DNA from: Candidatus Caldarchaeales archaeon
GTDB lineage: Archaea; Thermoproteota; Nitrososphaeria_A; Caldarchaeales; Wolframiiraptoraceae
DNA length: 64,000 nt
Direction: 5' to 3'
NCBI GenBank assembly: GCA_039630055.1
Contig: JBCNVN010000001.1
Coordinates: 75,410-139,409 of the forward strand
The notes under the pieces are model-generated. The model saw only the letters and a program-made list of their open reading frames with translations. It was not told where the DNA came from and ran no database searches. Within the stretch, counting starts at the first letter, position 1. Each line of letters begins with the position of its first letter. Made by a program: the position numbers and the translations under genes. Positions 19,503 through 27,857 of this stretch are shown piece after piece.

Positions 19503-19982
19503 ATGCCTCAGAAGACTGTTAGATTCATAGTTCAAGGAGGTGAAGCAACAGCAGGCCCACCGATCGGGCCTTCACTCGGTCCACTAGGTGTAAATGTTCT
19601 CCAGATCGTTGAAGAAATAAACCGGGTTACTTCAGAGTTTAAAGGGATGAGGGTTCCAGTAGAGGTAACAGTGGATACAGGTACAAAAGATTTCAAAGTT
19701 ACTGTGGGTATACCTACAACTACAGCCTTGATAGTGAAAGATGCAAAGATAGAGAAAGGTGCTAAGATGCCTGGAAGAGAGACTGTAGGTCAAGTCAGTC
19801 TCGAGCAGGTTATAAAAATAGCTAGGATGAAGATGGATGATATGCGTGCTAAGAGCTTGAAGACTGCTGTAAAGCAAGTTCTAGGAACATGTTTAAGTAT
19901 GGGGATATTGGTAGATGGTAAAAGTCCGAAAGAAGTCTTGAGAGAGATCGACTCCGGTCTTCACGATGAAAGATTGAAGTAG
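19503..19982 (+). CDS. rpl11: 50S ribosomal protein L11
   Basis: 159 aa. 'VQGGEATAGPPIGPSLGPLGVN' L11 signature. Confidence 0.9.
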   Translation: MPQKTVRFIVQGGEATAGPPIGPSLGPLGVNVLQIVEEINRVTSEFKGMRVPVEVTVDTGTKDFKVTVGIPTTTALIVKDAKIEKGAKMPGRETVGQVSLEQVIKIARMKMDDMRAKSLKTAVKQVLGTCLSMGILVDGKSPKEVLREIDSGLHDERLK

Positions 19983-20084
19983 CTTATGCGAAATTGAACC
20001 ATGAGGGATAGATCCGGAATATAGGTTGGAATACTTCAAGGTATGTTTAAATTAATCCTCTAGCCCTCAACCTTTAGAGAGGTT

Positions 20085-20741
20085 ATGCTTAAGAGTTTAG
20101 AAGCAGACTTGGCAACAGCTATCGAAGAAGCTAAGAAGAATGGAAAGCCTAGAAAATTTGAGCAGAGTATAGAGTTGATTATAAATATAAAAGGGTTAGA
20201 TTTGAAGAAGGCTGAGAATAGGTTCGTGGAAGATATAGAGCTTCCGAACAGTCCAATAGGTGGAAGAAAGATCTGTGTAATAGCTGGAGGTGCGCTAGCC
20301 TCTGAATCTAGGAAGATAGGAGAGGTTAGTAGAGTTATAGAGAGAGATGAGCTGGAATCGCTTATCGGTAACAAGAGGATAGCGAAGAAGGTCGCCTCAC
20401 AGTATGATTACTTTCTAGTTGATCCACCTCTGATGGGTTTAACGGCTAAGGCTCTTGGAGCTGCTCTAGGAGGAAGAGGTAAGAAGCCTGTCCCTATACC
20501 TCCAGGATCAAGTATAAGCGAACTCGTTAAGAAGTATAGTCGGATGGTTACGGTAAGTGTTAGGAAGAATCCTCAAGCTATGTGCGCGATAGGTACTGAA
20601 AGTATGGAGACTAGAGCCCTCGTAGAAAATGCTCTAGCGGTAATCTCTAAAGTCTCAGATAGATTAGAGAAGCATTTCAAGAATATAAAATCAATATATG
20701 TTAAGAAGAGTATGGGTAAGCCTATCAAGATAACACTTTAA
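20085..20741 (+). CDS. rpl1: 50S ribosomal protein L1
   Basis: 218 aa. L1 fold motifs 'QSIELIINIKGLDLKK', 'KICVIAGG'. Confidence 0.9.
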   Translation: MLKSLEADLATAIEEAKKNGKPRKFEQSIELIINIKGLDLKKAENRFVEDIELPNSPIGGRKICVIAGGALASESRKIGEVSRVIERDELESLIGNKRIAKKVASQYDYFLVDPPLMGLTAKALGAALGGRGKKPVPIPPGSSISELVKKYSRMVTVSVRKNPQAMCAIGTESMETRALVENALAVISKVSDRLEKHFKNIKSIYVKKSMGKPIKITL

Positions 20742-20812
20742 AGATAAAAATCATCTCTCAGAGTATAGTTAGAGAAAGTTTATCAACTTACATGTTGATG
20801 TAGATCTAGAAC

Positions 20813-21430
20813 TTGAAGCAGAAGTTGGGATTAAAGATCTCAAAGATCTTGATACGTAATAGTGATTGTAGAGTTGTAAGGTGGTTGGAGAGTAAAGGGG
20901 TTGAAGCAGAATTTAAGATTGTTAAGATAAGTGAGAATACTTCTACACATCTATTAAGATTTCCCAAACCGATAGAGTTTGACAAACAGATGGATATCCA
21001 TGGTTCATACATGGTCTTGCCAGGCAACTATCTCTGGATAAATACAGAAAGCTGTACAGCATGTAGAACCTTCTCAAAACTACCTGTAATAATGAGATCT
21101 ATATCATATGCTAAATCCTCAGGCATTATCGTAAGATTAATAGTTCCAGGGAGATTATTTCATAGACAGCTTATAGAGTGCTTAGAGAATTCTGGTCTAG
21201 AAGTAGAATCAATCTCGATCAGAGAATATGAAGATTATGAGTTGACTGAAAGACAGATGGAGGTTCTCATAACGGCCTTAAAGTTAGGATATCTAGGAAG
21301 TAGGAGAAGCGCAAAGCTGAAAGACATAGCATCCTTTATAGGCTCAGATCCCTCTACAGTCTCACGGATTATTAGAGACGGCATCAAAAAGATAATAAAA
21401 AGAACTTTAGATGAAGAACATATTTATTAG
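20813..21430 (+). CDS. HTH_10 (Bat-type) family transcriptional regulator
   Basis: 205 aa. C-terminal 'LTERQMEVLITALKLGYLGSRRSAKLKDIASFIGSDPSTVSRIIRDGIKKI' matches the HTH_10 DNA-binding domain. Inserted between rpl1 and rplP0. Confidence 0.5.
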   Translation: MKQKLGLKISKILIRNSDCRVVRWLESKGVEAEFKIVKISENTSTHLLRFPKPIEFDKQMDIHGSYMVLPGNYLWINTESCTACRTFSKLPVIMRSISYAKSSGIIVRLIVPGRLFHRQLIECLENSGLEVESISIREYEDYELTERQMEVLITALKLGYLGSRRSAKLKDIASFIGSDPSTVSRIIRDGIKKIIKRTLDEEHIY

Positions 21431-21486
21431 TATATCATACAACATTTTGTATGAAAATATTATCTTTAATCATGAATAAACATTAA

Positions 21487-22065
21487 TTGATGGCACCCCA
21501 GATAATTATAGAAGTAGTCTATCTTGTAATAATATCGATAGTCATAGGGTTCATTATAGTCTTCTACATATTGACTCAGAGAGGTAAGAGTAGAGGTCAG
21601 AATTCAAGTGGTGAAGAGCATGGGATAAAGAAGGGTATGGAGAAAGGAGAGAAACGATGGCTGGTCTTCTTATTCATAATAGCTTTGATCGGAAATATGG
21701 TGATGCTGTCTCCACTTCTCCCATCTACGAGATACACTTTATGGTTAGAAGAAAAACCAAAATTAACGATAAAAATAGAAGTGATAAACTATGAATTTAT
21801 ACTTCCTGAAAAGCCTATAACTATCCCAGCAGGTACTCCAGTAGAGTTTATAGTAGTATCTCAAGACCTAGTATATGGTTTCGGGGTATTCAGAAAGGAT
21901 GGGCTCATGGTATTCCAGATGCAGGTGGTTCCTAAACCATATGAAAATCGAATAGTATGGGTATTCGATGAGCCTGGGTACTATGATATAAGGTCTACAG
22001 AATATAGTGGTCCTAAGCATCCCTACATGTATGTTCCCGATGCAATAAAAGTAGTGGGAGGATGA
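21487..22065 (+). CDS. heme-copper oxidase subunit II-like cupredoxin protein lacking CuA ligands
   Basis: 192 aa with N-terminal TM helices then a cupredoxin-like domain. In place of the CuA motif 'H..C.E.C..H..M' it has '...VYGFGV...RSTEYSGPKHPYM': both Cys are Ser and the first His is Tyr, as in quinol-oxidase-type subunit II. Confidence 0.5.
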   Translation: MMAPQIIIEVVYLVIISIVIGFIIVFYILTQRGKSRGQNSSGEEHGIKKGMEKGEKRWLVFLFIIALIGNMVMLSPLLPSTRYTLWLEEKPKLTIKIEVINYEFILPEKPITIPAGTPVEFIVVSQDLVYGFGVFRKDGLMVFQMQVVPKPYENRIVWVFDEPGYYDIRSTEYSGPKHPYMYVPDAIKVVGG

Positions 22066-22071
22066 GAATGT

Positions 22072-23640
22072 ATGAATGAAGAAGAGAGGAAGGTTCTCTC
22101 GATAAGGTTTGTAGTGATCTCATTGATCTTCTTAGCATTAGCTGGGATTGAAGGAATACTGATGAGGTTTAGAATAGTAAATACTCTTGTAGAACTCTTT
22201 GATGAAAAGCATTTCTACTCTATGATGACAGCCCACCCATTTATCGGAGTATATGGATGGGCTTATATGGCTGTTATGGGTGCATTCTACTTTCTCGTAC
22301 CCTATATTCTCAAGAAAGATATCTACAGTAAGAAGGCTGCATACTTGAGTTTCTGGCTGATGATTATAGGTTTGGCAACTGTCTGGACAACTACATTTTT
22401 AACTCATTATGCACCCCTCTACACTCTCTACTGGCCTATACCGGTGGCATACGATATAATTGGATGGAACATATACTCTATACTCTCTTTTGGTTTAGGT
22501 GTCGCATTGATCTTAGGAGGTGTACTCACATTCTTTGGGAACATGTTTGCTACAATATTCCTATCTCAGCGGCAGACAGATGGAGGATCTGCCAGCCCAT
22601 GGTACATAATCAAAGAACTAATTATAACAGCATTCAATCTAGATAAGGTTAGGGCAAATATACTAAGACTACCGCAATATACTTCGAAGGCCTTCAGTTA
22701 TCCAGTCTTTGTTGTAGCCGTTTTTAGAGGATGTGTAGATACGACATTAAACGCGTTTGTTATAGGAGGTGTAGGAGTACTCTTGATAGTGTTTGCTATA
22801 GGAAACGTGATCCCGAATCTTTCTATATCCCATACTATACTAGATCCATTAATATACAAGAATATCTTCTGGTGGGGGCTAGACCTTATAGCTGATGGGA
22901 ACGTCCTCATCTTCACCGCTGGAACATGGTATCTTCTCGTACCACTACTACTCAATAGGACTTTATACGGAGAGAGTGTTGTGAGAACTGTTATCCTTGC
23001 AGACCTTGTAATCTCTCTCTTCGTCTGGAATCACCATATGCTGGCAGATACTCCTCAGCCCTTAGCTCTACAGATACAAGGTCAGATATTCACTTGGGGA
23101 GAGCTGCTGACGATGGGGTTGACAATGTTCGCTGTTCTAGCAACGATATGGTATGCGAGACCTGTAAAATATTCTATGCCCTTGAAGTTTATTCTCGTAT
23201 CTATTGTAGGATATGCTGTAGGTGGTTTAGCTGGAATAATACAAGCGAACTATGCATCAAACAGATTCTTCCATAATACTCAGTGGGTTATAGGGATCCA
23301 TGGACATATACAACTGCTTGTAGGGTTATCTTCAACTCTGTTTGCAGCGGTTTATGCTCTCTTCCCATTACTTACAGGTAAGTCGCTTAGTGAAAGATTG
23401 GGAAATGTTCATTTGATACTCTGGACTGTTGGTGGACTGGTGATGGGATTAAGCATGGGGTTGGCTGGAACACAGGGGATGTTGAGGAGAACTCTCTACC
23501 CGATGGGATTAGGACCTTTCGAACCATATATGAACATAGCGATCATAGGAGCTTTGATGATGGCAACGGCCTTCATAATCTTCCTTGTAAATATCATTAG
23601 AACGGTAAAGCTTGGCAACCTACTAAAGATACTCTTTTAA
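22072..23640 (+). CDS. heme-copper oxidase subunit I-like protein with incomplete binuclear-centre ligand set
   Basis: 522 aa with about 12 TM helices. Conserved 'TAHPF' (helix II His), 'VWNHHML' (His-His), 'IGIHGHI' (helix X His-X-His) are present. The helix VI 'FWFFGHPEVY' region reads 'FWWGLDLIADGNV', so the CuB His and the cross-linked Tyr are absent. Confidence 0.65.
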   Translation: MNEEERKVLSIRFVVISLIFLALAGIEGILMRFRIVNTLVELFDEKHFYSMMTAHPFIGVYGWAYMAVMGAFYFLVPYILKKDIYSKKAAYLSFWLMIIGLATVWTTTFLTHYAPLYTLYWPIPVAYDIIGWNIYSILSFGLGVALILGGVLTFFGNMFATIFLSQRQTDGGSASPWYIIKELIITAFNLDKVRANILRLPQYTSKAFSYPVFVVAVFRGCVDTTLNAFVIGGVGVLLIVFAIGNVIPNLSISHTILDPLIYKNIFWWGLDLIADGNVLIFTAGTWYLLVPLLLNRTLYGESVVRTVILADLVISLFVWNHHMLADTPQPLALQIQGQIFTWGELLTMGLTMFAVLATIWYARPVKYSMPLKFILVSIVGYAVGGLAGIIQANYASNRFFHNTQWVIGIHGHIQLLVGLSSTLFAAVYALFPLLTGKSLSERLGNVHLILWTVGGLVMGLSMGLAGTQGMLRRTLYPMGLGPFEPYMNIAIIGALMMATAFIIFLVNIIRTVKLGNLLKILF

Positions 23641-23828
23641 GATATCTAACCCTCAAACTTCATATTTTTCAGTTATATTTAGACTAGTTACTATAAAGTA
23701 ACTCTGAAAGTTAAGAGATGAATATTTAAGATCTTTAGAGTCCTATCCTACAACACTTTAAGTTTTTTAACTAGGTGAAAGTATAGACAGACTGAGTTAG
23801 TAGAGTTTAAAGGAGTGTTGGTTTAGAC

Positions 23829-24698
23829 TTGAATGGACAGACCGTGATCTCGAGGGTGCAGAGATGGAAGATTGAAGAAGTCGAGGAATTGGCAAGTTTA
23901 ATCGGAAAGCATCGAGTAATCGCTGTCTTTAGTTTATCCGGCTTGAGAACAAACCTAATACATGAGATTCGGAAGAAGCTTAGAGGCTTCTGCACTATAA
24001 GAGTTGCAAAAAAGACCCTCTTTATCAAGGCCGTAGAGCGGGCGGGTAGAAAAGATCTGGCTAAGCTTGTAGAAGATATTAAAGAAAGCGTTGGGTTCAT
24101 ATTCTCAGATCTTAACATATTCAAGCTTAAAATGCTGCTGGATAAGAATAAGGTACTCATGCATGCTAAAGCAGGAGAGAGATCAGATATAGATGTAATA
24201 GTGCCTGAGATGAATACTGGACTTCCTCCGGGACCTATCTTGAGCGATTTCGGAAAGTTAAAGATACCTACGAGGATCGAGGGAGGTCAGATATGGATCG
24301 CTAAAGATACTCTAGTAGCTAAGAAAGGTGATGAAATATCAGCTCCTCTGGCCTCACTTCTATCAAGGCTTGATATAAAAGCGGTGATGAAAGGGATAAC
24401 GATCGATAAAGGCTATGAAGATGGAGTGATATTATCTGGAAAAGACCTTGAATTAGATCTAGAGATGTTCAAGAATAACATTATAGAGGCCAGTAGCACA
24501 GCCATGAAGTTAGCGTTAGAGATAGGATATGTAACAAGAGAGACTATACAGCCTCTAATAATCAAAGCATATAGAGAGGCTAGGTCTCTCGCAATTGAAT
24601 CAGGGTTCCCAGATAAAGAAGTGATAGGAGAGATGATTATCAAGGCTGAAGTAATAGCTAGAAGGCTGGAAGAGTTGATAGAGGCTAAGAGGACCTAA
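23829..24698 (+). CDS. rplP0: 50S ribosomal protein L10 (acidic ribosomal protein P0)
   Basis: 289 aa. 'VFSLSGLRTNLIHEIRKKLRG' P0 N-domain. Ends '...RRLEELIEAKRT' with no acidic C-terminal tail. Confidence 0.8.
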   Translation: MNGQTVISRVQRWKIEEVEELASLIGKHRVIAVFSLSGLRTNLIHEIRKKLRGFCTIRVAKKTLFIKAVERAGRKDLAKLVEDIKESVGFIFSDLNIFKLKMLLDKNKVLMHAKAGERSDIDVIVPEMNTGLPPGPILSDFGKLKIPTRIEGGQIWIAKDTLVAKKGDEISAPLASLLSRLDIKAVMKGITIDKGYEDGVILSGKDLELDLEMFKNNIIEASSTAMKLALEIGYVTRETIQPLIIKAYREARSLAIESGFPDKEVIGEMIIKAEVIARRLEELIEAKRT

Positions 24699-24709
24699 CC
24701 CTCTATTGA

Positions 24710-27475
24710 TCACTTGGCCAATATCTGGATGATTAGATCGTTGACAGTTTTTCTTAAATCTTCTTCATCGACATCTCTTCCCAAGTTTCCCTGACCAAGC
24801 CTAGATTGTCCACCACCCTTTCCACCAAGCTTTGATGATATCGCATCGGCTAGTCGTCCAGCATGAATTCCTAGATCCTGAGCCTCTTCACTAGATACTA
24901 TAAGCAATTTTGGTTTCCCCACATCGAATGCTATCACGACGCATTTCGGACCCTTTTTCTCCATCAATATATCCGAGATCATGAATGCATAATCCCTATC
25001 ACCCTCTACTTCCCTGGCTACAAATACTTCGATCCCCCCGATTATAGACCGTCTATCGAATAATTCTTGAGCTCTATATTTTGCAACCATTCTTTCAAGC
25101 GAGTTGATCTTCCTCCTCAGTTCTTTAACCTGATCCAATTCTTCCTTTAACTTCTCTAAGATATCTACTGGAGATGATTTAAGAAGTATAGATGCCTCAT
25201 TTATTATTCTATCGTTTTCTTGGAGGTATGGTAAAGCTGATGGACCTGCAGCGAAGATGAGTCTTTCCACACCATCTTGTATTCTCTCCGTCTTCAATAT
25301 CTTTATCAATCCTACGTCTTCAGTGTTTTCACAGTGCATTCCACCACATGCTTCTACATCCCAACCTAATATCCCTACAACTCTAATCGTAGCAGAGGGT
25401 ACCTCGCCTCCTTGATATAGGGTGAATCCATAAATCCTCTCCGCCTCATTTCTATCCATCCACTTGATGACGACCGGTATCCTACTCATAACGATCCTAT
25501 TCGCTTCCCTCTCTATCTTCTCAATATCTTCTCTGGTCAACCTCTTATGATGGTATATGTCTAATCTAGCTTTATCTGGTTCCTTCTCTGCACCGGCTTG
25601 CCAAGCATGCTTACCTAAGACCCTTCTCGCAGATCCCAGAATTATATGTGTGGCAGTATGGTGTCTCATCAATGTAAGCCTCCTCTCTCTGTCTAACTCT
25701 GCATCTACTATGGTTCCTACCTCTGGTGTAGGACCCTCGATCTTATGGAGAATTACACCACCACTCAATAGACTGGTCTCGACAACTCTTGCTTGATTAT
25801 TTTGACCCCATCTTATGAAACCTATATCGGTGGCTTGACCTCCTCCAGTAGGATAAAACAATGTCTGATCGAGAATTACATAATTATCTAGAACGCCTAT
25901 GACCTTTGCCCTGAACTTGAACTCAAAAGGTTGCTCATAGTACAGCTTCCTCGTTGGAGGATAGTTTTTCACTCTTTCCTCTAGAATTTTGAGCTCATCA
26001 TGGATTGGAGGTTCAATGGATCTGAGATGTCGTGATGCTACAAGCTCATAGAAGTTCTCGGGGACCGATATTTTTACATCTTCTCTTTCAGCGATCTGTC
26101 TTACAAAATCGGGGGTGAGCCCTCTCTCATCATACATTCTAACCAAGAAATCTACTGGAACCTCTCCATGACTATCCTTCAACCGCTTGATCTCTCTCTC
26201 AACATAAGTAGCTCCACGGAAGATTGTCTCTTTAAACTTCTTTATCTCAGACTCTATTATCTCGAGAGCTTCATCCCTCATCTCTATGAGATGTGGAAAA
26301 TCCTTTCCCCAGAAGTTTAGCTGTAGATCTACCAGCTCGAGCAGTTTATCAGATGAAGATATGGAGTCTATCAGTCTGTATGCCTTCCTAATCAGTAACC
26401 TTGCTAGATAGCCTACCTTTACATTTGATGGTACAACCCCCTCACTTATTATAAATGCTATAGACTTTGTGTAATCAAGTAGTGCATAGACTTTCTCCAG
26501 TGCTGCTATCTCCTCCTCTATAAACCTGAGGGGGATCTCAGATTTTTCTGATATTAGTCTCCTCACTTCAGAGATCGTTTGTCCAGACTTTGGGATGACG
26601 AGAGCCGTATATGGTGAGTATCTCTCGAGAAGCTTTCTATCAGGCTTAGGGAATGGTAGGATCTTCTCAATCCTCGGATAGAGCTCACCATATACTGCAT
26701 CGAAGCAGCTGGGTGTTCCTTGGCTGAACCATGCAAACCTCTCGATGCCATAACCTGTATCTACAGTTCTTATCGGTAGCTCTATCAACTCGCTATCAAG
26801 TGTCTTATACTGCATAAAGACGAGTGTTGCTAACTCTAGTCCATAAGAGATGGTTTCAAAGCATGGTCCAGCATTTCCGCCACCACTCCAAACAGACTCT
26901 TTGTAGACTATCTGATCTTCAGGTATGCCGAATTCCTCCATAACATATTCATGATAATATCTTACTGTATCCTCTTTCCAGTAGATCTCCTTGTCTGGAT
27001 AGTTGAATGCATGGGCTCCACCCATCTCGAATATCGTTAGATGTCTTCCGAAAGTTAATCCAACCTTGTCTATGTCTACCAGTCTTATACATGGCTGACT
27101 AATTACTAGGGGGTTGGCTGGGGGTGGGGCTATTCCAGAAGTCACGAAGGGTTGGAAGTCTACGATGCTAGCATCGGTTAAGAACATGTCGGTCCTCCAT
27201 CTAGCAACGACTGGATATGGCTTTATCACTGTATGACCTCTCTTCTCGAAGAATCTGAGAAAGGTCTCTCTAGAACCTTTAACGTCAACCTTCTTCTTTG
27301 CTAGACTTCTACCGATAAATTTGTATTCTTCACAAGGTGACTCTCCACAGACTTCTCTATCTAGATCGACTGTCCAAAAATATTCTCCACAATACTTACA
27401 TCTTCTTCTGACGTAACCTCTCTCTTTAAAGAATTCTAGACTATAAACTTCTTCGCTGAACCTCATACCATCCAT
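24710..27475 (-). CDS. alaS: alanyl-tRNA synthetase
   Basis: 921 aa. Class II catalytic core, editing-domain 'HTATH' and 'CGGMH' zinc motifs, and a C-terminal DHHA1-like domain. Confidence 0.9.
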   Translation of the reverse strand: MDGMRFSEEVYSLEFFKERGYVRRRCKYCGEYFWTVDLDREVCGESPCEEYKFIGRSLAKKKVDVKGSRETFLRFFEKRGHTVIKPYPVVARWRTDMFLTDASIVDFQPFVTSGIAPPPANPLVISQPCIRLVDIDKVGLTFGRHLTIFEMGGAHAFNYPDKEIYWKEDTVRYYHEYVMEEFGIPEDQIVYKESVWSGGGNAGPCFETISYGLELATLVFMQYKTLDSELIELPIRTVDTGYGIERFAWFSQGTPSCFDAVYGELYPRIEKILPFPKPDRKLLERYSPYTALVIPKSGQTISEVRRLISEKSEIPLRFIEEEIAALEKVYALLDYTKSIAFIISEGVVPSNVKVGYLARLLIRKAYRLIDSISSSDKLLELVDLQLNFWGKDFPHLIEMRDEALEIIESEIKKFKETIFRGATYVEREIKRLKDSHGEVPVDFLVRMYDERGLTPDFVRQIAEREDVKISVPENFYELVASRHLRSIEPPIHDELKILEERVKNYPPTRKLYYEQPFEFKFRAKVIGVLDNYVILDQTLFYPTGGGQATDIGFIRWGQNNQARVVETSLLSGGVILHKIEGPTPEVGTIVDAELDRERRLTLMRHHTATHIILGSARRVLGKHAWQAGAEKEPDKARLDIYHHKRLTREDIEKIEREANRIVMSRIPVVIKWMDRNEAERIYGFTLYQGGEVPSATIRVVGILGWDVEACGGMHCENTEDVGLIKILKTERIQDGVERLIFAAGPSALPYLQENDRIINEASILLKSSPVDILEKLKEELDQVKELRRKINSLERMVAKYRAQELFDRRSIIGGIEVFVAREVEGDRDYAFMISDILMEKKGPKCVVIAFDVGKPKLLIVSSEEAQDLGIHAGRLADAISSKLGGKGGGQSRLGQGNLGRDVDEEDLRKTVNDLIIQILAK

Positions 27476-27509
27476 CTAGTGACAACTACTTATAGATAAA
27501 AATAATCCT

Positions 27510-27857
27510 CTAACCAAAGAGAGCGCTTAATCCTGCTAAAGCCTCTTCTTCTCTCTCTTCTTTCTTCTCTTCTTTCTTTTCAGCTGGTTTTACTTCTGGA
27601 GCAGGAGCCTGGGCCGCAGAGCTCGGACCTGCCGATATTATAGGAGTAGCTGAAGCCGACTTCAAGACTTCTTCAATATTGATCTCTGAAACTGCTGCTA
27701 CTAGAGATTTAATCCTAACTTCATCTGGAGTGATCCCGGCGGCTGATAGGACCCTCTTCACATTCTCTTCATTAATCGGCTTACCAGCCTTGTGGAGAAG
27801 TAAGACTGTATATATGTACTCCATCTCTAGTCTAACATAGTCTAGGTTAGCCTGCAT
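27510..27857 (-). CDS. rpl12: 50S ribosomal protein L12 (P1 stalk protein)
   Basis: 115 aa ending in the hallmark stalk tail '[20 protein letters not shown]'. Confidence 0.85.

Follow-up and report, generated by a model that had tools for sequence, protein, structure and literature searches.

A probable gNOR (norGH) gene pair within a ribosomal protein gene cluster of a Caldarchaeales archaeon

The gNOR enzymes, a family of haem-copper oxidases (HCOs), are carried by Methylomirabilis oxyfera, Sulfurimonas (S. denitrificans), Sulfurovum and Persephonella, and the family is reportedly also to be credited to Hemp and Gennis in 2008 and to Sievert et al. in 2008. No other HCO family is described as having exchanged an active-site His, which in gNOR has become Asp (Murali et al. 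2024, PMC11214002), and a table drawn up after Hemp and Gennis 2008 gives Asp for gNOR where the active-site Tyr would be (PMC8756737). The secondary subunit has a cupredoxin fold without the CuA residues, as in bo3, possible quinol-binding residues have been noted, and the family is related to the B family (PMC11214002). The norGH genes encode an enzyme described as quinone-oxidising and non-electrogenic (PMC8906906); M. oxyfera has one copy, Damo_1118-1119 (PMC6094997), and the annotated gNOR of a Methylomirabilis metagenome-assembled genome (MAG) consists of one PF00115 protein and a partner without a Pfam hit (PMC8906906 supplement). Both Bacteria and Archaea contain gNOR, most of the taxa concerned being uncharacterised and most of the environments sulfidic (PMC11214002); it is considered typical of sulfidic habitats, and its hosts include Campylobacterota and Aquificota (PMC8756737). 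Here we describe a gene pair from a 64,000-nucleotide stretch of a Candidatus Caldarchaeales MAG (the whole stretch is hereafter the window), which very probably encodes the core of a two-subunit gNOR.

The pair consists of the subunit II gene (21487-22065, + strand), encoding 192 amino acids from a TTG start (the NCBI call has 191 from the next Met), and, 7 nt on, the subunit I gene (22072-23640, + strand), encoding a 522-amino-acid, 12-helix HCO catalytic subunit. Translation confirmed both reading frames and the motifs quoted for them in a preliminary description, which had been made from the DNA letters and had termed the two metal centres degenerate. Subunit I matched Pfam COX1 over its full length (E 2.3e-61), and its AlphaFold model, built from 66 homologues, had a predicted local distance difference test score (pLDDT) of 83.4 and a predicted template modelling score (pTM) of 0.87 and matched solved subunit I chains in Foldseek with a template modelling score of ~0.8. 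Subunit II is laid out as two N-terminal membrane helices and a C-terminal cupredoxin domain. Its profile matches were weak (TIGR02866 CoxB, E 3.2e-9; SoxA, 9.8e-6; CyoA), Pfam COX2 stayed below threshold, and the protein is, like the gNOR partner in the Methylomirabilis MAG, without a Pfam hit. Its cupredoxin domain was modelled by AlphaFold 2 with a pLDDT >90, the best matches in the Protein Data Bank being subunit II of Thermus thermophilus ba3 and the isolated CuA domain (E ~1e-8). The COX1 match, the models and the ba3-like cupredoxin domain together indicate a genuine pair of HCO subunits II and I.

Conservation was assessed in two sets of relatives. A phmmer-based search gave 2,682 proteins, 66 of which were aligned, down to 48% identity, and a genome scan gave 78 full-length proteins, down to ~45% identity, from the 80 loci that were nearest to the archaeal query and that all lay in MAGs. 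Subunit I has the full 12-helix HCO fold with the low-spin haem ligands, the high-spin axial ligand and the arginine pair that binds the haem propionates. His55 of helix II (22234-22236, + strand; in 'TAHPF'), a low-spin haem ligand, aligns with H102 of aa3-600, and His410 and His412 of helix X (23299-23307, + strand; in 'IHGHI', 23296-23310, + strand), the axial ligand of the high-spin haem and the second ligand of the low-spin haem, respectively, align with the H-F-H of aa3-600. His321 and His322 of helix VII (23032-23037, + strand; in 'WNHHM', 23026-23040, + strand) are the retained ligands of the non-haem metal. All of these residues, together with R472/R473 at the haem propionates and H401-N402-T403, are invariant in the 78 genome homologues.

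The canonical oxygen-reductase site, with its three-His CuB and His-Tyr cofactor, is absent. The active-site segment of helix VI (YKNIFWWGLDLIADGN; 22855-22902, + strand) has Asp271 (22882-22884, + strand) in place of the metal-ligand His and Asp275 (22894-22896, + strand) in place of the cross-linked Tyr, and it offers no conserved substitute His. W267, D271 and D275 are invariant, and their i/i+4/i+8 spacing is that of W, H and Y in a canonical helix VI. P0270, among the nearest proteins outside the family, reads LIWWGLHSYVNQ in this segment, with the same 'WWGL' lead-in followed by His and with Asn four residues on ('WWGLHSYVN'). A HMMER alignment that set Leu270 under the CuB His, with one gap before it and two after, was rejected on these two grounds, and the P0270 register and the spacing thus assign Asp271, not Leu270, to the position of the lost His. 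Of the substitution that the preliminary description had given as His to Leu or Asp, the Asp part therefore stands, with D271 at the His and D275 at the Tyr position, and the Leu part falls. Judged by this register, Asp271 is the ligand position and Asp275 the Tyr position, which is held by Glu in the nitric oxide reductases (NORs) cNOR and qNOR and by Asn in sNOR and bNOR. His254 of 'SISHTIL', named beforehand as a residue that might take over the CuB site, was rejected as a migrated ligand, being present in 3 of the 78 relatives and replaced by Pro in most. Similarly, no migrated Tyr was apparent in the 78 sequences, in which the only invariant Tyr of helix VI is Y287, 12 residues beyond D275.

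The motif 'YKNxFWWGLD[LM][IV]ADG' was found in 66/66 aligned phmmer homologues and likewise in the 78 genome homologues. Since one of the two search patterns used in the genome scan contained WWGLD, the phmmer set is the independent evidence for conservation of the motif. The lack of the canonical His and Tyr from helix VI in every homologue examined argues against both chance and the sequencing error that had been considered for this segment. The proposal that the HCO family is divergent and its binuclear centre altered is borne out. The acidic residues E27, D271, D275, D326 and E344 are invariant in the 78 proteins as well, and D311 is kept in 76 of them; D271, D275 and E344, with D311, form a buried acidic set that is described here as new. 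A non-catalytic or decaying HCO remnant might be suspected from the loss of two residues essential in oxygen reductases and of all CuA ligands. We regard this as barely credible, because the replacements are invariant across Archaea and Bacteria down to ~45% identity, as are the haem ligands and the propionate-binding arginines, which points to redesign and not to decay. Furthermore, in 75 of the 80 loci the subunit II gene immediately precedes that of subunit I, and a haem O synthase gene lies within 6 kb in 9 of them (these and the neighbourhood counts below are raw counts, not an enrichment test against background). The invariant haem ligands, H321/H322, R472/R473 and the new acidic set hence contradict the terms 'degenerate' and 'non-catalytic' under which the pair was first described.

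In subunit II, the loop that would hold CuA (RSTEYSGPKHPYM; 21991-22029, + strand) is degenerate, with Ser170 and Ser174 in place of both Cys. Tyr130 (21874-21876, + strand), invariant in 34 family members, lies in 'DLVYGF', where 'DVIHSF' is canonical, at what we take to be the position of the first CuA histidine, judging from the canonical subunit II motif. 'RSTEYSGP', Y130, S170 and S174 are invariant in the subunit II family, in agreement with the quinol-oxidase-like character proposed for this protein at the outset; position 178 is either His or Asn across the family, and no vestigial set of CuA ligands is thus left. Overall, subunit II is a cupredoxin of the ba3 kind from which all CuA ligands have been lost, and it contains no haem c motif.

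Glu27 in helix I of subunit I (22150-22152, + strand), which is invariant, aligned pairwise with the quinol-binding Asp of the quinol oxidases (D74 of aa3-600, corresponding to D75 of bo3; 6KOB chain A), so that quinol may be bound at Glu27. Of the remaining quinol-site residues of aa3-600, H94 aligns with H47, which is 33-70% conserved, and R70 and E97 are unmatched. In the alignment to solved HCOs, the Glu position of the D-channel is Ile or Val and the Lys position of the K-channel is Thr, and subunit I has no canonical D- or K-channel residues. The quinol oxidases bo3 of E. coli and aa3-600 of B. subtilis resemble the pair in their CuA-less subunit II and in the Asp75/Asp74 that align with Glu27, and by sequence they are its best-scoring solved structures; they differ in being proton-pumping O2 reductases of the A family with an intact CuB/Tyr site and both D- and K-channels, and Arg70 and Glu97 have no counterpart here.

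When a family profile was searched against 1.84 billion representatives clustered at 50% identity, two full-length clusters of the family were recovered, P0242 at 790 bits and P0243 at 556 bits, together with fragments, followed by a gap down to 186 bits. The next-best outgroups, at 140-186 bits, were B-type HCOs ('LLAKN..GHPVVY') and NOR-type HCOs with H-x3-N, and the A-type representatives inspected ('WQH..GHPEVY') scored <=120 bits. A rough neighbour-joining tree grouped the family with the non-A members of the superfamily, beside P0270. Among the 69 full-length representatives within the 150 best matches, Asp occupied the His position in no other group, and NOR structures were lacking both from the 60 sequence matches listed and from the 50 top-ranking structural ones. 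The nearest relatives thus appear to be B-type oxidases and the NOR derivatives of these. With Thermus thermophilus ba3 the pair has in common the B-type 'AKN' lead-in to helix VI, which is shared by its nearest sequence relatives, and the structurally closest subunit II; the CuB His, the His-Tyr cofactor, CuA and the K-channel analogue of ba3 are all missing here. As a separate observation, the 462-amino-acid protein P0273 also lacks a His at the ligand position of helix VI (LIWVALRFYLQGG, with Arg for His/Asp) and has 'HWQHLL' at the site of the helix VII His pair; it may represent a further family with a rebuilt active site.

Besides the 66 aligned proteins, the genome scan yielded relatives in at least 585 of 185,579 GTDB species (one genome per species) of both Archaea and Bacteria. 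The archaeal hosts include Aigarchaeota/Caldarchaeales, Bathyarchaeia, Geothermarchaeota and Methanomethylicia, and the bacterial hosts include many Anaerolineae, other Chloroflexota, Firestonebacteria, Omnitrophica and Nitrospiria. The P0243 cluster is large and bacterial (Actinomycetota, Thermoleophilia, Actinotalea, Ignavibacteria, KSB1, Bacteroidota); in a search with P0243, the matches listed were all at least 74% identical and came from Actinomycetota, Ignavibacteria, KSB1 and metagenomes. A tblastn search against plasmids gave no match. One match, P0051, is labelled Methylomirabilota. It belongs to a soil and peat clade (P0026-P0051; L008; L081) whose members are 64-67% identical to the archaeal protein and come from MAGs labelled Terriglobales, Methylomirabilota and Bathyarchaeia; the mixed labels reflect either recent inter-domain transfer or mis-binned contigs, and the one contig of this clade that was inspected was uninformative on a bacterial origin.

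The features of this family correspond to those published for gNOR: an Asp in place of the His and another at the Tyr site, a cupredoxin partner without CuA, relation to the B family, hosts among Bacteria and Archaea from anoxic habitats, and a two-gene unit with subunit II upstream. A quinol site, considered possible in gNOR, may be present here too, to judge from Glu27. The prevalence is also alike, as 156 gNOR were reported for GTDB r202 (PMC11214002; release from 10.1101/2021.10.15.464467), and both counts amount to ~0.3% of GTDB species. Furthermore, the survey of Murali et al. took in the entire superfamily, in which so large a family would hardly have escaped notice, so that gNOR is also reached by elimination. 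The pair is thus to be counted as a member of a family already described and not as a new kind of enzyme; what is new are its host lineage (Caldarchaeales and relatives), its placement in a ribosomal protein gene cluster and the Cys-containing HTH_10 regulator encoded beside it. The helix VI His is not, as stated earlier, retained in every described family of HCOs that reduce O2 or nitric oxide (NO): it is Asp in gNOR (PMC11214002) and Asn in the putative NO dismutases (PMC3413370).

A gNOR-type, quinol-driven NO reductase pair in an anaerobic, thermophilic Caldarchaeales (Aigarchaeota) archaeon is the best explanation overall, and we hold it to be fairly probable; NO reduction is predicted, with slightly more confidence than doubt, to be the physiological activity. 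We propose that electrons would pass from membrane quinol, via the low-spin haem, to a haem/non-haem-iron centre, where the reaction 2 NO + 2 e- + 2 H+ -> N2O + H2O would take place. Entry of electrons from quinol is suggested by the lack of CuA and cytochrome c as points of entry, together with the location of Glu27 at the quinol position of the quinol oxidases. The carboxylate-rich site of two His and one or two Asp would bind iron, not copper, iron being preferred by analogy with the FeB of cNOR and qNOR, which has three His and one Glu. Protons are probably not pumped, because the canonical D- and K-channel residues are missing. Here, as in the family's many hosts that are fermentative or strictly anaerobic, the likely role would be detoxification of NO and not respiratory denitrification, which is the less plausible of the two because most hosts are not known denitrifiers.

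The comparison with cNOR and qNOR (NorB, NorZ) extends beyond the metal. These enzymes likewise have a haem and non-haem metal centre without a Tyr cofactor, no canonical proton channels, a carboxylate at i+4 from the first metal ligand, which is Glu in cNOR and Asp275 in the present family, and several buried acidic residues. They differ in their FeB ligands, in their cytochrome c subunit or fused N-terminal domain and in their relation to the C family, whereas the pair described here has two His and Asp, is B-related and has a cupredoxin partner. The NO dismutase (NOD) of Methylomirabilis oxyfera is comparable as an HCO offshoot that has exchanged one of its metal-ligand His (PMC3413370), though it is a qNOR-like single polypeptide with His changed to Asn and Glu to Gln, while the present pair is a B-related two-subunit enzyme with His changed to Asp. 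Other nitrogen-oxide chemistry, such as NO dismutation or N2O reduction, has been proposed for HCO offshoots with altered ligands, namely NOD and a cNOR-related putative N2O reductase (PMC11214002, PMC3413370). For the present family such chemistry is very improbable, as those offshoots are related to qNOR or cNOR and not to the B family, and neither nos genes nor genes for methane or alkane oxidation were found in the neighbourhoods of the 80 loci.

The neighbouring genes give modest support to a role in NO handling. Hemerythrin-domain genes lie within 6 kb in 22 of the 80 loci and genes for Crp/Fnr regulators in 13; the two genes closest to the pair on either side include Hcp (2), NirS (2), YgbA_NO (2) and uroporphyrinogen decarboxylase (3). 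The commonest of these neighbours, the hemerythrin-domain and Crp/Fnr proteins, respond to O2 as well as to NO, and most hosts are strict anaerobes in which no denitrification pathway is obvious, both of which would also suit a quinol oxidase that scavenges O2 or peroxide, reducing O2 or H2O2 at a low rate to protect oxygen-sensitive metabolism, with NO not being the physiological substrate. Some O2 reductase activity in characterised NORs counts in the same direction. Nevertheless, we consider such a scavenging oxidase unlikely: Hcp, NirS and YgbA_NO point to NO over O2, and four-electron reduction of O2 in HCOs needs the His-Tyr cofactor (PMC11214002), both residues of which are absent here, with no Tyr having migrated.

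Several points weigh against the interpretation as a gNOR-type NO reductase. The assignment of NO reductase activity to gNOR rests on modelling and on an engineered-myoglobin mimic, no gNOR having been purified or assayed (PMC11214002). Most hosts, among them Bathyarchaeia, Anaerolineae, Methanomethylicia and Wolframiiraptoraceae, are not known denitrifiers, and the NO-related neighbours, as raw counts, occur in a minority of loci. The geometry of D271 and D275 around the metal site is deduced from the register of the sequence. Among solved structures, the A-family quinol oxidases outscore Thermus ba3 by sequence, and the relation to the B family accordingly rests on uncultured B-like sequences and the crude tree. 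Moreover, it was the published description of gNOR with which the pair was matched, and all three haem-ligand His are invariant in the 78 sequences, although a preprint from the same group as the gNOR survey reports a His-to-Glu substitution of a haem ligand in gNOR (10.1101/592808). Because PMC11214002 does not list this substitution, we treat it as a discrepancy and not as a defining trait.

The last two of these points could be taken to mean that the pair belongs to a distinct HCO family, so far undescribed and only similar to gNOR, and that Sulfurimonas and Methylomirabilis carry the real gNOR as another clade, the more so as Campylobacterota and Aquificota, which are gNOR hosts (PMC8756737), are not among the closest hits listed. 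The missing Campylobacterota are not evidence of absence, however, since the lists are confined to the nearest hits of each query. A separate family is also quite unlikely because the survey of Murali et al. covered GTDB and IMG and found gNOR to be the only family with the active-site His replaced (PMC11214002), because a family in at least 585 species genomes would hardly have been missed, and because the other defining features of gNOR, and its prevalence, agree. On a broader view, the physiological reaction of the family might not be NO reduction but a chemistry new to the superfamily, for example one in which quinol reduces another small oxidant, or the family might be distinct from the gNOR of the literature. 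The wide occurrence in fermentative or strictly anaerobic Archaea and Bacteria without nitrite reductases, and a 2-His/2-Asp centre that is unique among HCOs, speak for this possibility, which we consider doubtful.

Recognition of the pair as gNOR alters the metabolic reading of its hosts, from O2 respiration to the handling of NO. Subunit I is 100% identical to NCBI MEN2974048.1 of a Candidatus Caldarchaeales MAG; its public name, throughout the family, is 'cbb3-type cytochrome c oxidase subunit I', and that of subunit II is 'hypothetical protein'. The current annotation thus wrongly suggests aerobic respiration in an anaerobic Aigarchaeon, and automated reconstructions would score the hosts as oxygen respirers. 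The family, with thousands of metagenome proteins in addition to the species genomes counted above, is large and strongly conserved and has never been studied biochemically. As the only HCO branch with a carboxylate for a metal-binding His, it bears on the re-metallation of the HCO scaffold and on 2-His/carboxylate NO chemistry in nature.

Among the loci examined, six of Chloroflexota encode a polytopic membrane protein of ~460-490 amino acids without a Pfam match after subunit I, directly downstream in four of the six (L063:11171-12646, L037:7711-9090, L043:2346-3662, L052:6376-7752, L033:5336-7027). This protein, which the window lacks, may serve that clade as an accessory subunit.

In the window, the pair is the distal part of a set of three + strand genes, beginning with a gene for a transcription regulator of the bacterio-opsin-activator type (20813-21430, + strand; 205 amino acids; Pfam HTH_10, E 6.7e-11, residues 144-196), that lies between the genes for ribosomal proteins L1 (20085-20741) and L10 (23829-24698). 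The surroundings are archaeal housekeeping genes, with CDC48, Spt5/NusG and ribosomal L11 and L1 on one side and L10/P0 and alanyl-tRNA synthetase on the other, and the rest of the 64-kb window likewise holds housekeeping genes, with no further respiratory or denitrification genes. The regulator and the gNOR pair split the archaeal L11-L1-L10-L12 cluster, which is normally contiguous, between L1 and L10/P0 (window 19503-27857), and L12/P1 (27510-27857) lies on the opposite strand, past alaS (24710-27475). Placement inside the L11-L1/L10 cluster is kept in the related Geocrenenecus-like genomes L001-L004; the order L1, regulator and gNOR pair, L10 and alaS on the - strand is repeated in the related Aigarchaeota loci L001 and L003, and in L004 the L1 and regulator genes likewise lie upstream of the pair.

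Homologous HTH_10 regulators adjoin the pair in about 10 archaeal loci (cluster 10), for example at L001:4741-5346, L010:7578-8198, L011:7619-8218, L039:7508-8194 and L079:979-1599. From its position alone, the HTH_10 protein is a candidate for a regulator dedicated to the pair. Beyond the HTH it is without a Pfam match, and in 9 of the 11 aligned regulators three Cys, one N-terminal and then a CxxC, line up ahead of the DNA-binding domain. The Cys-containing regulator could be a redox or NO sensor based on a metal or an Fe-S cluster.

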